Shown piece after piece: positions 2,047-51,491 of a DNA stretch of 64,000 nucleotides. This DNA comes from an uncultured Gemmatimonadales bacterium (lineage in GTDB: Bacteria > Gemmatimonadota > Gemmatimonadetes > Gemmatimonadales > GWC2-71-9). Location of the stretch: positions 51,631-115,630 of the forward strand of contig OY970263.1 of the NCBI GenBank assembly GCA_963715665.1, given 5' to 3'. Below the pieces are notes generated by a model. The model did no database searches, had not been told where the DNA came from, and saw only the letters and a program-made list of their open reading frames with translations. How positions within the stretch are numbered: position 1 is the stretch's first letter; each line of letters opens with the position of its first letter. Position numbers and translations under genes: made by a program.

Positions 2047-2992
2047 CCGGACGGTCAGCGGTCCCGAGCGTGTCACGCGGCGGGACATCGACGCCCTGAA
2101 CCGGATCTTCTCCGATGCGTTCACCGAGCGGTACCGGCGGGACGGAATGTCCGGCGTGCGGGTGCCGTTCCTGAATCCGGCCATCTGGGAGTTTGCCATA
2201 GAACTGGCGGGCGAAGGGGCGATGCTCTGGCGCGACGCGCGGCACGAGATCGTGGCGTTCAACCTGGCGCACCTGTCGGGCACCGAAGGGTGGATGGGGC
2301 CGCTGGCGGTGCGCACCGACCGGCAGGGCCACGGCCTCGGGCGCCAGGTGGTGACGGCGGCAATCACGCTGCTGAAGGCGCGCGGGGCGGTGACGGTCGG
2401 CCTCGAGACGATGCCGCGCACCATCGAGAATATCGGGTTCTACTCGCGGCTCGGTTTCTCGCCGGGGGCGTTGACGGTCACCCTCGGCAAGGACACCGGC
2501 CTCGGTGCCGGCACCGGCGAGCGACTCGGCCTGCTTACCGGCGACGCCCGGGATCGCGCCATTGCGGCGTGCGGCGAGCTGGTCGCCGCGATCCGTCCCG
2601 GTTCCGATTACCGTCGCGAAGTGATGCTGACCACAGAGCGGCAGCTGGGTGACGTGACGCTGCTGCGGAACCCGGCCGGCGGCGTCGCGGCGTGGGCGTT
2701 GTGGCACAGCGCGCCGCTGGCCAACGGGCGCCTGCGCGAGGAGCTGCGAGTCCTCAAGCTCGCCGCGGTCGACGCGGCGGCGGCCGAAGCGGTGATTGCG
2801 GCGGTGGAACACGACGCGCGGCAGCTCGGGCTGTCGCGGGTGGCGCTGCGCTGCCAGACCGAATACGGCGAGCTCTATCGCGGGCTGATCGCCAGCGGGT
2901 TCCGGGTGCAATGGACCGACCTGCGGATGCACTTCGGGGCGCCGCCACCGGCGACCGGTGAGGCGATCCTGTTGACCAACTGGGAGATCTGA
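2033..2992 (+). CDS. GNAT-family N-acetyltransferase
   Basis: ATG 2033 overlaps the sbcC stop. The upstream part of track ORF 1844-2992 is sbcC out of frame. Acetyl-CoA binding motif RTDRQGHGLGRQVV and a second GNAT-like half. 319 aa. Confidence 0.75.
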   Translation: MWRPDRTVSGPERVTRRDIDALNRIFSDAFTERYRRDGMSGVRVPFLNPAIWEFAIELAGEGAMLWRDARHEIVAFNLAHLSGTEGWMGPLAVRTDRQGHGLGRQVVTAAITLLKARGAVTVGLETMPRTIENIGFYSRLGFSPGALTVTLGKDTGLGAGTGERLGLLTGDARDRAIAACGELVAAIRPGSDYRREVMLTTERQLGDVTLLRNPAGGVAAWALWHSAPLANGRLREELRVLKLAAVDAAAAEAVIAAVEHDARQLGLSRVALRCQTEYGELYRGLIASGFRVQWTDLRMHFGAPPPATGEAILLTNWEI

Positions 2993-3004
2993 GGGTGGCG
3001 CCGT

Positions 3005-3169
3005 TCAGCGCGGCGGCGGCGTGCCCCACTTCGACACCGCGATGCCGCGGATGATGAGGGCGACGCCGGCGACGAGGGCGAGGTGGATCATGCCGGTCGC
3101 GGGCTGCAGTGCAAAGAACACCACCGCCCAGACGGCCACCAGCAGCAGGCCGATCACGAATTCCACCAT
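3005..3169 (-). CDS. small two-helix membrane protein (54 aa, lmo0937-like)
   Basis: Below the ORF-track cutoff. Reverse strand ATG 3169 to TGA 3005 gives MVEFVIGLLLVAVWAVVFFALQPATGMIHLALVAGVALIIRGIAVSKWGTPPPR. Two hydrophobic helices with a basic tail. Confidence 0.45.
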   Translation of the reverse strand: MVEFVIGLLLVAVWAVVFFALQPATGMIHLALVAGVALIIRGIAVSKWGTPPPR

Positions 3170-3225
3170 CGCGCGCCTTTCGTTGTCGGTGACCTGACCG
3201 GTGTCCGGCCGGGTGTGCCGTTGCG

Positions 3226-3254
3226 TTGACCGGTCCCGCCTTGCCGCCTATTAT
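3226..3254 (+). promoter_or_regulatory. sigma70-like promoter (TTGACC-N17-TATTAT)
   Basis: -35 TTGACC at 3226-3231, a 17-nt spacer, -10 TATTAT at 3249-3254. This AT-rich hexamer stands out in GC-rich DNA. Predicted TSS is about 3260. Confidence 0.5.
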
Positions 3255-3260
3255 AGCGAT

Positions 3261-3470
3261 GGCAGGACAATGGCGGGGAGACTTCCGTTATTGAGCCAAC
3301 AGTTCGGAGTCCGGGCCCACATTCCTGATCCGACGCCATGCCCCCACGGGGGGAAGACGGACGACACGGAGAGGGCGCCAAGCAATTCTTCCGGGCTTCA
3401 TATAACCCCTTCCCGTCAGGGTTCTGCCACGCGGCGGCGTCCCGCGACTGCGGCGACGCCGCCTGGCTTT
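3261..3470 (+). ncRNA. candidate structured small RNA (6S-like architecture) or cis-leader of the downstream PTPS/QueD gene; class unassigned
   Basis: 3261-3280 (GGCAGGACAAUGGCGGGGAG) pairs 18/20 with 3409-3428 (CUUCCCGUCAGGGUUCUGCC). Inner helix GGAGUCCGG (3306-3314) pairs with CCGGGCUUC (3391-3399). Apical hairpin CCCCC-ACG-GGGGG is at about 3341-3353. Terminal GC hairpin GGCGGCGUC...GACGCCGCC (3433-3463) is followed by UGGCUUU. No credible ORF in the 320-nt gap. Confidence 0.4.
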
Positions 3471-3490
3471 GACGGACACAGGATCTGACG

Positions 3491-3904
3491 ATGCCTCGCG
3501 CCCTGGTGGTCCGCCGCGTGCACTTCAATGCGGCACATCGACTGCACAATCCCGCCCGCAGCGATGAATGGAACCGCGCCACGTTCGGGCCGTGCAACCT
3601 GCCGAATTACCACGGGCACAATTACGAAGCCGAGCTGTGTGTCGACGGCGAGATCGATCCGGCGACGGGGTATGTCCTGGACGTCGCGATCCTGAAGTCG
3701 CTTTTCGAGACCCACGTCGCGGCGCACCTCGACCACCGCAACCTGAATCTCGACGTGCCGTGGTTCCGCGACCGGCTGCCGTCGGCGGAGAACCTCGCGA
3801 TCTACATCTGGGAGCAGCTCGTCGACCGGGTGCCGGCCGGGCGCCTGGCGTGCGTCCGGCTGTGGGAAACGCCGCGCAACTTCGTCGAATACCGGGGGGA
3901 CTGA
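3491..3904 (+). CDS. 6-pyruvoyl-tetrahydropterin synthase / 6-carboxytetrahydropterin synthase (PTPS/QueD family, eukaryote-like PTPS-I type)
   Basis: 137 aa. Motifs FNAAHRL, PCNLPNYHGHNY, GEIDPATGYV, LDHRNLN and ENLAIYIW closely parallel animal PTPS (GKCNNPNGHGHNY, GEIDPATGMV, LDHKNL, ENVAVYIW). Confidence 0.85.
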   Translation: MPRALVVRRVHFNAAHRLHNPARSDEWNRATFGPCNLPNYHGHNYEAELCVDGEIDPATGYVLDVAILKSLFETHVAAHLDHRNLNLDVPWFRDRLPSAENLAIYIWEQLVDRVPAGRLACVRLWETPRNFVEYRGD

Positions 3905-3908
3905 GGCG

Positions 3909-4601
3909 ATGGGCCCGCTGCACGGCCGGACGGTCCTGGTGACCGGCGCGTCACGCGGCATCGGCGCCGCGGTGGCGGCCCGCTGCGCGGCACTCGGCGC
4001 GATGCTGATCCGGGTGGCCCGCTCGGCGATGCCCGACCTGCCGGGAGCGGCGGACCTCCGCGCCGACCTCGCCGATCCACGCGAGCGGGACGCCGTGCTG
4101 CGGCGCATCTCGGAGGCGCACGGGGTGCCCGACGTGATTGTCAGCGGTGCCGGCGCCTTCCTGCTCGCCCCGCTGGAGGACACCACCGACGCCCTCTTCC
4201 GCGAACAGCTGGCGATCAACCTCGAAGCGCCGTTCGGCATCGCCCGCCATTTCCTGCCCGGGATGCGGGCGCGCGGCAGCGGCCTGCACATCCTGATCGG
4301 CAGTGTCGCCGACATGAGGGCGTACGGCGGCAACTCGGCCTATGCCGCGTCGAAGTTCGGCTTGCGCGGCCTGCACGAAGTGCTGGCGGAGGAGTTCCGC
4401 GGCAGCGGCGTGCGCTGCACGCTGATCTCGCCCGGTCCGACCGATACCGCGGTGTGGGACCCGGTCGATCCGGACAGCCGCGACGACCTGATCCATCGCG
4501 CCGACATGCTGCGGGTCACCGACGTGGCCGACGCGGTCGCGTACGTGGCAACGACCCCGTCCCATGTGCACATCGAGACGATCCGCCTGGGCCCGGCCTG
4601 A
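3909..4601 (+). CDS. short-chain dehydrogenase/reductase (SDR), possible sepiapterin-reductase-like partner of PTPS
   Basis: 230 aa. Cofactor motif TGASRGIG and catalytic YAASKFGLRG (YxxxK). Starts 5 nt after the PTPS stop. Confidence 0.8.
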   Translation: MGPLHGRTVLVTGASRGIGAAVAARCAALGAMLIRVARSAMPDLPGAADLRADLADPRERDAVLRRISEAHGVPDVIVSGAGAFLLAPLEDTTDALFREQLAINLEAPFGIARHFLPGMRARGSGLHILIGSVADMRAYGGNSAYAASKFGLRGLHEVLAEEFRGSGVRCTLISPGPTDTAVWDPVDPDSRDDLIHRADMLRVTDVADAVAYVATTPSHVHIETIRLGPA

Positions 4602-4615
4602 ACCGACCGGCCCCG

Positions 4616-5182
4616 ATGTTCATCGAGCTCACCGACCTGCTGCGCTGTCCCAACGATCATCCCGAGGCGTTCCTGGTGCTGCTCCCCGACCGGATGGACG
4701 GCAGGCGGGTCGTGGCGGGCCACCTCGGCTGCCCGGTGTGCGGCTGGAGCATGGCGTGGAACGACGGCGTTCCCGACTTCGGTGGCGGGTGGCGCAGCAC
4801 GGTGGCACCGCCGTTCGACGCGGCGGGGGCGGTGGCGCTGCTGGGACTTGGCGGACCGGGTGGGTGGGTGGCGCTCGCCGGTGCGGCGGCAGGGCTGGTG
4901 GATGCGGTCCATGCGCTGCTTCCCGGGGTGCACCTGGTGGCGATCAATCCCGGCGCCGGGGTGGAGCCGTCGGACGACACCAGCGTGCTGGTGAGTGGGG
5001 CGTGGCCGCTCAAGTCGCGGATGTTGCGGGGAGCGGTGCTCGGCGCCGACGCGGCGGCGTGGCGCGACGCGGCGGCAGCGAGCGTGCTGCCGGGGCTGCG
5101 GCTGGTGGGGAGCGGCGAGCCTCCCGGTGGTGCCGAGGTGCTCGGACGCACCGCGGAGGCGTGGGTGGTGCGGGTGCGCTGA
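4616..5182 (+). CDS. hypothetical protein with N-terminal Trm112-like zinc-ribbon and a degenerate methyltransferase-like C-terminus
   Basis: ATG 4616 (MFIELTDLLRCPNDH...GHLGCPVCGW). The upstream part of track ORF 4454-5182 overlaps the SDR gene. The Gly-rich LGLGGPGGW resembles SAM motif I. Confidence 0.5.
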   Translation: MFIELTDLLRCPNDHPEAFLVLLPDRMDGRRVVAGHLGCPVCGWSMAWNDGVPDFGGGWRSTVAPPFDAAGAVALLGLGGPGGWVALAGAAAGLVDAVHALLPGVHLVAINPGAGVEPSDDTSVLVSGAWPLKSRMLRGAVLGADAAAWRDAAAASVLPGLRLVGSGEPPGGAEVLGRTAEAWVVRVR

Positions 5183-8438: not shown

Positions 8439-8981
8439 CTACTGGGGCAGCTCGTCGCGGCCGAACGCCTCGTACCACGGCCGGTCGGCCGCGAGCAGGT
8501 CGTAGACCGCCTGCAGGGTCTCGGTCGATCCGGCGAGGAAGCGGCAGGCATCGTCGCCCCGTGACCGGCATTCCACCTCGAGCACCGCCAGCGGGGCGCC
8601 GGCCTGGGCGGTGAAGAACGCCGCAAAGCAGCCACAGGTGAAGTGACACCCGGGATGCGTTGCGGTTGCCGGCGCGGCTTCCGCCCAGTCGCCGGCTTCG
8701 AGCAGCACGGCGCGGTCTCCCACCGGCGTCACGGTGATCGATCCCCACCCGAGGGCCACGCAGAGTTCGTCGAAGAGCGGCGGAAACCAGCGCGCGTCGA
8801 GGCGGCCGGCGTCGTCGAGTCCGGTGCGCTCCGCGACGCGGTTCCGCCAGCGGTCGAAGAGCGCCTCGCCGGTGGCGAAGCCGGCGTCCTGCAGCACGTC
8901 GGCGGCGACGCCTGGCCCGACCGCTTCGAGGCGGAGACGGAGGCGGCGAAGCGACTCGGGTGCGATGGAGAAGTCTGGCAC
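8439..8981 (-). CDS. V4R (4-vinyl reductase) domain protein
   Basis: 180 aa, GTG start. C-terminal Cys pattern HPGCHFTCGCFAAFF...VECRSRGDDACRF is typical of V4R hydrocarbon/ligand-binding domains. Confidence 0.55.
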   Translation of the reverse strand: MPDFSIAPESLRRLRLRLEAVGPGVAADVLQDAGFATGEALFDRWRNRVAERTGLDDAGRLDARWFPPLFDELCVALGWGSITVTPVGDRAVLLEAGDWAEAAPATATHPGCHFTCGCFAAFFTAQAGAPLAVLEVECRSRGDDACRFLAGSTETLQAVYDLLAADRPWYEAFGRDELPQ

Positions 8982-8993
8982 GGCGCTGCGAAG

Positions 8994-11800
<2,807 letters not shown>

Positions 11801-51042: not shown

Positions 51043-51118
51043 GCTGACGTAGCTCAATTGGTAGAGCACCCGATTTGTAATCGGGCGGTTGTGGGTTCAA
51101 GTCCCGCCGTCAGCTCCA
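51043..51118 (+). tRNA. thrU: tRNA-Thr (anticodon TGT)
   Basis: Acceptor GCTGACG/CGTCAGC, D-arm GCTC-AATTGGTA-GAGC, anticodon arm CCCGA-TTTGTAA-TCGGG, T-arm GTGGG-TTCAAGT-CCCGC, CCA encoded. Confidence 0.93.
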
Positions 51119-51167
51119 GTGAGTGAGGCGCCGAAAGGTTGCGGGGCAGGTTGGTTGGGCAGGACTC

Positions 51168-51251
51168 GGTGGGGTGGCCGAGTGGTTAATGGCAGCAGAC
51201 TGTAAATCTGCCGGGCTTCGCCCTACGTAGGTTCGAATCCTACCCCCACCA
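51168..51251 (+). tRNA. tyrU: tRNA-Tyr (anticodon GTA), long variable arm
   Basis: Acceptor GGTGGGG/CCCCACC, anticodon arm GCAGA-CTGTAAA-TCTGC, long variable arm, T-loop GGTTCGAATCC. Confidence 0.9.
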
Positions 51252-51281
51252 CTTGGCCGGTTGGCGCAGTGGGCATCGACC

Positions 51282-51354
51282 GCGGGTGTAGCTCAGTTGG
51301 TAGAGCATCAGCCTTCCAAGCTGAGGGTCGCGGGTTCGAGTCCCGTCGCCCGCT
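51282..51354 (+). tRNA. glyT: tRNA-Gly (anticodon TCC)
   Basis: Acceptor GCGGGTG/CGCCCGC, D-arm GCTCAGTTGGTAGAGC, anticodon loop CTTCCAA, T-loop GGTTCGAGTCC. Confidence 0.92.
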
Positions 51355-51418
51355 CTGTGGCTGGATGCAGGACGAGGACGCGCCGCGGGGACCTGAGCCC
51401 TGGGCACCGGGGGAGCAG

Positions 51419-51491
51419 GCTCGCGTAGCTCAGTCGGTAGAGCACATCCTTGGTAAGGATGAGGTCACCGGTTCGATCCCGGTCGCGAGCT
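51419..51491 (+). tRNA. thrT: tRNA-Thr (anticodon GGT)
   Basis: Acceptor GCTCGCG/CGCGAGC, D-arm GCTCAGTCGGTAGAGC, anticodon loop TTGGTAA, T-loop GGTTCGATCCC. Confidence 0.92.

Follow-up and report, generated by a model that had tools for sequence, protein, structure and literature searches.

A non-coding gap in the genome of a Gemmatimonadales bacterium, located just before a gene of the PTPS/QueD family, contains what looked from the start like a strong promoter followed by a structured RNA. The original prediction left two options for it, either an independent small RNA similar to 6S RNA or a cis-regulatory leader of a pterin or queuosine gene. Which of the two is encoded there is the question that we have addressed, analyzing the whole stretch of DNA available (64 kb, referred to as the window) and the equivalent loci of related genomes and metagenomes. 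Our analysis indicates that a gene for a small RNA, about 170-210 nt long, is really present in the gap upstream of the PTPS gene, and that it is conserved. From comparison of sequences and folds we suggest, with a probability of about 0.7, that it is the 6S RNA gene (ssrS) of this bacterium, belonging to a divergent lineage that would be spread through the Gemmatimonadota.

Promoter, extent and distribution of the RNA gene

The coordinates of the features are collected in Table 1. A near-consensus promoter had been claimed in the gap, and the scan confirmed it as the sole sigma-70-like promoter between positions 2900 and 4000, where shuffled sequences are expected to provide 0.1. It is conserved among relatives. 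TTGACN was retained at the -35 position in at least 132 of the 146 unique family members, and 126 of these 146 kept at least 9 of the 12 promoter consensus positions with a spacer of 16-18 nt. In the family alignment both the -35 (TTGAC) and the -10 (TATnnT) boxes are conserved, and the latter ends a few nucleotides 5' of the base of the closing stem P1. Judging from the position of the promoter, transcription would start at about 3260-3262, and the ends given for the primary transcript (3260 and 3470) are those deduced from the promoter and the terminator together. The RNA core has 169 nt, or about 210 nt including the terminator, and family members have between 170 and 183 nt. That the plus strand is the RNA strand is fixed by the G-U pairs, and likewise by promoter and terminator. 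On the other side of the gap, the small ORF divergent from the RNA promoter codes for 54 hydrophobic amino acids and has no Pfam match; tblastn matches to it were found in 25 related genome loci (42-92% identity), and given this conservation the ORF probably encodes a genuine membrane protein of small size.

Table 1. Features of the RNA locus and its neighbours, in window coordinates.
Feature	Position	Strand	Basis or remark
Small minus-strand ORF	3005-3169	-	Upstream border of the non-coding gap
Non-coding gap	3170-3490		321 nt, between the minus-strand ORF and the PTPS/QueD-family gene
-35 box TTGACC	3226-3231	+	Promoter scan and family conservation
-10 box TATTAT, 17-nt spacer	3249-3254	+	Promoter scan and family conservation
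Predicted primary transcript	3260-3470	+	6S-like RNA core (3260-3428) plus 3' terminator hairpin
P1 closing stem, 5' strand	3260-3280	+	Pairs with 3409-3428
P2, 5' strand, UUGAGCC core	3292-3297	+	Pairs with 3394-3400
Internal loop	Between P1 and P2	+	Consensus fold
Central bubble, 5' strand AACAGUUCGGAGUCCGG	3298-3314	+	No covarying long-range pairing
Apical (internal) arm	3315-3376	+	Short helices with conserved internal loops between them
P3	3315-3318/3373-3376	+	Covariation
Apical hairpin CCCCC/GGGGG	3341-3345/3349-3353	+	Tip of the apical arm
Central bubble, 3' strand GCCAAGCAAUUCUUCCG	3377-3393	+	Variable in sequence, no conserved pairing
P2, 3' strand GGGCUUCA	3394-3400	+	Consensus fold, compensatory changes
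P1 closing stem, 3' strand	3409-3428	+	Fold and covariation
GC-rich terminator hairpin (3433-3463) and weak U tract UGGCUUUG	3433-3471	+	Fold, sequence
PTPS/QueD-family gene	3491-3904	+	PF01242, E = 1.2e-33
SDR oxidoreductase, second gene of the pterin-type operon	3909-4601	+	PF00106

The homologues of its PTPS assign the window to the Gemmatimonadales, and an identical contig was identified in a public assembly. By nhmmer, the non-coding element was detected in practically every one of the 80 related genomes, ahead of the PTPS gene. A covariance model (R1), built from the alignment, located it in 79 of the 80 QueD-selected Gemmatimonadales loci; the exception (L030) has just 135 nt of upstream sequence, and two other loci are cut by contig ends. 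Within the 64 kb of the window R1 identified a single copy (3255-3434, 132.9 bits). Since a sample selected by QueD is biased by its own selection, metagenome contigs were scanned with a pattern drawn from the RNA itself, which removes this bias. R1 confirmed 74 of the 80 metagenome matches listed, with scores between 76 and 178 bits, and the six that it did not confirm were discarded as chance. Two oddities of the related assemblies were found along the way. A contig labelled 'Bacillota bacterium MAG294' (L071, JBLMWC010000098.1) carries an RNA-PTPS locus of the Gemmatimonadales type and is probably mis-binned. Besides, the MAG cluster1_bin.40 has a near-identical RNA-PTPS-SDR locus on two contigs (L018 and L019), for which strain heterogeneity in the bin is more likely than a true duplication.

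Conserved fold and covariation

The window RNA together with the GC hairpin folds as a closed rod of -103.1 kcal/mol, a stability above that of dinucleotide shuffles of the sequence (z = -3.2). The pairing of its 5' and 3' ends was borne out by the fold, and so was the apical CCCCC/GGGGG hairpin. In the conserved fold, the closing stem is GC-rich and has about 20 bp in the window (12-13 bp in the family model); helix P2 is formed by UUGAGCC and GGGCUUCAA, and the central bubble of the window has 17 nt per strand.

The check for covariation in relatives strongly supported this fold with P2. All 12 modelled pairs of P1 show compensatory changes across relatives, the three outer pairs of P2 covary, and covariation was also found for P3, P5 and P6. 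In the QueD-selected alignment 96.4% of the cells were paired and 25 of the 36 pairs had changes on both sides, the values for the mixed set of 73 sequences being 94.5% and 23 of 36. The covariation score was 0.373 for the QueD-selected set, against a maximum of 0.089 when the partners were slid, and 0.403 for the mixed set, against 0.124. In neither set did any shuffle attain such values. A screen for extra helices and pseudoknots, in which the covariation of all columns was compared against all, returned the consensus helices and clade-correlated noise only. Outside the helices, the internal loops of the apical arm are near-invariant in sequence (ACAU, GUCAUG, GGGGAAGAC and GGUGAGGG). Of 78 loci, 74 have AAC as the three nucleotides located 3' of GAGCC, where the bubble begins, three have GAU and one has AUU, the third nucleotide being always a pyrimidine.

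One part of the original prediction has to be redrawn. It included a 9-bp helix between 3306-3314 and 3391-3399, with an asymmetric loop of about 25 nt on one side and 9 nt on the other. This helix is indeed present in the minimum-energy fold of the window (-73.8 kcal/mol, versus -62.8 for the conserved fold), but it is not a conserved pairing. It competes with P2 and has no family support, and in 150 relatives 3394-3400 pairs instead with 3292-3297, with compensatory changes. The helix is an alternative pairing in the window sequence only. In place of the asymmetric loop, the conserved bubble is made of 17 nt on each side, and it had been misplaced because the prediction relied on the non-conserved helix.

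Genomic context: neighbouring genes and terminator

At the QueD-selected loci the RNA is always directly 5' of the PTPS gene, with a median distance of 73 nt from P1 to the start codon. Most relatives have an operon PTPS-FolE-SDR, in which FolE (PF01227) is located between the other two genes (for example at 3392-3976 of L060). The clade of the window has no folE here, with nothing between 3904 and 3909, and has lost it from this position. The set PTPS-FolE-SDR is typical of the synthesis of a tetrahydrobiopterin-like pterin and not of queuosine. The linkage proves little by itself, because the whole SMC-GNAT-RNA-PTPS block is syntenic; the PTPS/QueD gene is a neighbour of the RNA and not part of it. 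The ORF that follows the SDR gene in the window (4616-5182) is conserved in 60 related genome loci and gave a weak N-terminal match to a Trm112-like zinc ribbon (NF038101, E = 1.3e-4).

A different picture was obtained from the loci selected by the RNA. There were 69 confirmed ones with enough downstream sequence to identify the next gene. In 33 of them this was a Na/Ca exchanger (PF01699) on the opposite strand and convergent with the RNA, in 28 it was PTPS and in six FolE, both on the same strand. The remaining two had a fumarase-like ORF (recognised by eye) upstream and cytochrome b (PF00033) downstream. Overall, a convergent or unrelated gene was found downstream in 35 of the 69 loci, and the RNA was fully conserved even where the convergent gene separates it from the pterin operon. 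From this conservation it follows that the RNA has a gene of its own and that it is not, as a rule, a leader or riboswitch. It is an independent gene, with its own conserved promoter and usually with its own terminator. In the metagenome locus L123 the exchanger, at 8596-9807, is a convergent insertion that separates the RNA from PTPS/FolE, as it is in 32 other metagenome loci, and its stop codon overlaps the terminator hairpin of the RNA, which may act there as a bidirectional terminator.

The GC hairpin that had been described upstream of the PTPS start codon was confirmed. By a crude count, a hairpin is found 3' of P1 in 144 of the 146 members, and at least three of the next nine nucleotides are U in 85 of them; among the QueD-selected loci the majority carry a GC hairpin and a U tract after P1. 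Seven loci (L003, L006, L007, L008, L015, L020 and L028) have no terminator and the start codon is only 20-33 nt after P1, so that there the RNA is part of the mRNA leader. In L002 the usual terminator is replaced by a long purine-rich/pyrimidine-rich inverted repeat (2783-2884; GAGGGAA...GGAGGGAAGGAGAG and CCCUCUUUCCCUCUUUCCC, about -49 kcal/mol). A conserved CTTGACC-N16-CAAYTT was found in L041, L047, L048, L050, L053, L058 and L061, about 40-75 nt past the RNA terminator and before PTPS; this clade-specific box has the look of a second promoter, one that would serve only the operon. In the window, no other promoter-like site was detected between the RNA and the PTPS gene in the scan from 2900 to 4000 and the U tract is weak, so the PTPS and SDR genes are probably expressed by read-through of the terminator, like fau/ygfA behind ssrS in E. 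coli.

Likeness to 6S RNA and to other known systems

By its published definition (PMC8876501), 6S RNA forms a rod of about 200 nt in which a closing stem, a central bubble largely without structure and an imperfect apical stem follow one another, and the sequences of different lineages have little identity; it has been described as present in nearly all bacteria (PMC8414754). The core described here falls within the typical length of about 160-200 nt, has the rod fold with closing stem, bubble and imperfect apical stem-loop, shows the two signatures (the helix flanking the bubble and the apical hairpin) in register and belongs to a stand-alone gene. The score for the Rfam 6S model (RF00013) stays below the gathering value of 46.4 bits, with no match for the window copy, 19.0 bits for one relative (L117) and 15.6 for another (L162).

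These two relatives are divergent members from different clades. For L117, RF00013 was the top of 4227 families (E = 0.038), and for L162 it was the best on the RNA strand (E = 0.24). Both alignments are full length, covering model positions 1-187, and both place UGAGCC on CuGAgCC and GGGCUUCA on GGuUCaAg. In the apical part, CAUGCCCC...GGGGAAGAC aligns with cAaGCCcgg...ccgGGAAgCc of the Rfam 6S, and the apical GCCCC..GGGGAAG falls on GCCcgg..ccgGGAAgCc. The best score of the family is far below the gathering threshold; the per-family significance is much better than the E-values listed, because 6S was a prior hypothesis.

The rest of the Rfam searches were negative. At gathering thresholds the whole 64-kb window provided four tRNAs and no 6S, with no known-family match for the element; the four tRNA genes are clustered within about 450 nt on the plus strand (51043-51491, 64-74 bits). 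At E <= 10 neither 6S nor any riboswitch matched the RNA region of the window or the relatives L060, L120 and L139. The model for 6S-Flavo (RF01685) gave no match at any threshold, and those for preQ1, THF, THF-II, Moco and ZTP gave none at gathering or relaxed thresholds. Some low-scoring matches, to CcsR1, scr5239, lncRNA fragments and ArcZ (the last on the wrong strand), were considered chance. In the reverse direction, R1 and a second family model (R2) were run with filters off against the ssrS locus of E. coli and did not detect ssrS. The elements by which known 6S RNAs rearrange show no clear conservation in the family. The pairing between the distal 5' bubble and the 3' strand of P2 had -8.5 kcal/mol versus -6.2 for shuffled sequence, with p <= 0.05 in 14% of the members, and the 3' bubble hairpin of the E. 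coli type was not enriched across the family compared with shuffled sequence. The internal loops of the apical arm show a sequence conservation above what is expected for 6S, and could mark a different partner.

Part of these data would also fit a conserved stand-alone small RNA whose role is other than the sequestration of RNA polymerase, for example a protein scaffold, and whose rod only resembles 6S. The high sequence conservation of the apical loops is in favour of such a role, together with the negative reverse searches against E. coli ssrS, the four of six members without RF00013 match and the small energy difference of the rearrangement pairing. We consider it unlikely nonetheless, since among 4227 families RF00013 comes out best on the RNA strand for two members of different clades, in full-length alignments that keep the motifs in register, E. 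coli 6S has matching proportions and a matching helix next to the bubble, and none of the other Rfam families fits. A GC-rich inverted repeat arisen by chance and without function has a negligible probability. GC-rich genomes do give many stable predicted folds and the z value of the window is only -3.2, but some 150 homologues with a conserved promoter, extensive compensatory changes and invariant loops refute it.

The second option of the original prediction was a leader, that is, a riboswitch or other cis-regulatory element that senses a metabolite of the pterin, folate or queuosine pathways and controls PTPS-FolE-SDR through the terminator. Its position directly upstream of PTPS/QueD in all the QueD-selected loci, and of FolE in six others, speaks for it, as do the seven loci in which the RNA lies within the mRNA leader and the single promoter detected for queD in the window. 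As a general role it was rejected on genomic context: an opposite-strand gene lies between the still conserved RNA and the operon in 33 of the 69 RNA-selected loci, and two more have no pterin genes nearby, so that the RNA is not invariably in a same-strand 5' UTR. One clade has, besides, the promoter-like box TTGACC-N16-CAAYTT between terminator and queD, the GC-rich closing stem of about 20 bp is unlike a ligand-gated P1, and, with the whole surrounding block syntenic, linkage is a poor argument by itself. The RNA did not match any known aptamer class for pterin, folate or queuosine at gathering or relaxed Rfam thresholds, and no antiterminator was obvious by eye. We find this role quite improbable. 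The first option, an independent 6S-like RNA, has gained from the RNA having its own promoter and terminator, from its varied context, from the 6S architecture and from the two weak RF00013 matches.

The sequence shows or predicts a strong housekeeping-type promoter, with transcription starting at the base of the long closing stem, and an RNA that folds into a rod (P1, P2, a bubble with about 17 nt in each strand, and the irregular apical arm) and usually ends at an intrinsic terminator. 6S RNAs, common regulators of RNA polymerase in bacteria, are abundant and accumulate in stationary phase. If the RNA described here is one of them, a working scheme can be proposed from what is known of 6S in E. 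coli and B. subtilis. The rod would mimic an open promoter and sequester the RNA polymerase holoenzyme with the primary sigma factor. The polymerase could then copy the 5' bubble strand into helix P2, giving a short product RNA. In E. coli 6S (U44) and B. subtilis 6S-1 (C40) this product starts at the third nucleotide after the helix, which by analogy with E. coli would place the template start at C3300. The predicted product RNA would have the sequence 5'-GUUGGCUCAAUAAC..., beginning 5'-GUUGGCUCAA, and such products would be complementary to UUGAGCCAAC. Their synthesis, by copying AAC and UUGAGCC, would unwind P2 and free the polymerase; a possible stabiliser of the released form in the window is the alternative helix 3306-3314/3391-3399.

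A literature search on 6S or structured RNAs in Gemmatimonadota and on riboswitch candidates of PTPS or folE, with the two main 6S surveys outside its scope, gave nothing relevant. What is new here is most likely a divergent lineage, so far unannotated, of a kind of RNA that is itself well known. Pipelines based on RF00013 would not annotate this RNA in abundant soil bacteria, because the standard model misses the lineage. The seed alignment of about 150 sequences with its covariation-supported structure (models R1 and R2) could be used to enlarge the 6S family or to found a sister one, and would be useful for annotation as well as for the physiology of Gemmatimonadota, in which the RNA is a concrete candidate regulator of RNA polymerase for the cultured Gemmatimonas strains. 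With a 6S gene ahead of a folate- or pterin-related gene in two phyla so distant from each other, the placement would be a recurring one, testable at the locus. A functional coupling of the Gemmatimonadota 6S gene to the synthesis of GTP-derived pterins is a doubtful proposal. It would draw on the many lineages in which the RNA heads a PTPS-FolE-SDR operon transcribed only through or past the 6S terminator, in parallel to the proteobacterial unit of ssrS with fau/ygfA (5-formyltetrahydrofolate cyclo-ligase). If true, the link between 6S and folate or pterin could have an ancient or a convergent origin, and it could have a meaning for growth-phase control instead of being an accident of synteny.

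Among the closest known systems is E. coli 6S (SsrS, RF00013), which shares the closing stem, the bubble of about 17 nt per strand and the irregular apical arm. For the successive segments we estimate lengths of about 38/17/62/17/35 nt in the RNA described here, and of about 41/17/73/16/37 nt in that of E. coli. The helix that borders the bubble on the side of the closing stem is UGAGCC/GGCUUCA here and UGAGCC/GGUUCA in E. coli; P2 corresponds to the downstream helix of E. coli 6S. Three relatives read UGAGCCGAUA, identical to E. coli 6S, and the apical hairpin CAUGCyC...GrGAAGmC is common to both RNAs. The gene directly downstream on the same strand is fau (5-formyl-THF cyclo-ligase) in E. 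coli (ssrS-fau, L082 1484-2290) and PTPS, often with FolE, here (3260-3904 in the window). There are also differences. The sequence likeness is too low for the RF00013 cutoff (no match for the window and at most 19 bits for relatives), and the 9-bp release hairpin of the 3' bubble of E. coli 6S is not clearly conserved in the Gemmatimonadota RNA. E. coli 6S is processed out of a longer transcript, while the RNA described here usually ends at its own terminator.

B. subtilis 6S-1 shares the architecture and also, as predicted here, a product RNA with G as its first nucleotide, opposite to a C located three nucleotides into the 5' bubble. The product RNA of 6S-1 has the sequence GUUCGGUCAAAACU, and its predicted counterpart here is GUUGGCUCAAUAAC. 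The helix 3306-3314/3391-3399 of the window resembles the 'central bubble collapse helix' of 6S (PMC8876501), but this collapse-type alternative is not clearly conserved across the Gemmatimonadota family. The small cis-acting aptamers THF-II (folE motif) and preQ1 have in common with it the position upstream of folE or of queuosine-pathway genes; they differ in that the Gemmatimonadota RNA has about 170 nt and that a convergent gene often stands between it and the operon. Finally, 6S-Flavo (RF01685) is a divergent 6S lineage, also from the FCB superphylum, for which a separate model was needed, as RF00013 misses it. Although RF01685 itself does not match the Gemmatimonadota RNA, 6S-Flavo parallels the situation proposed here.
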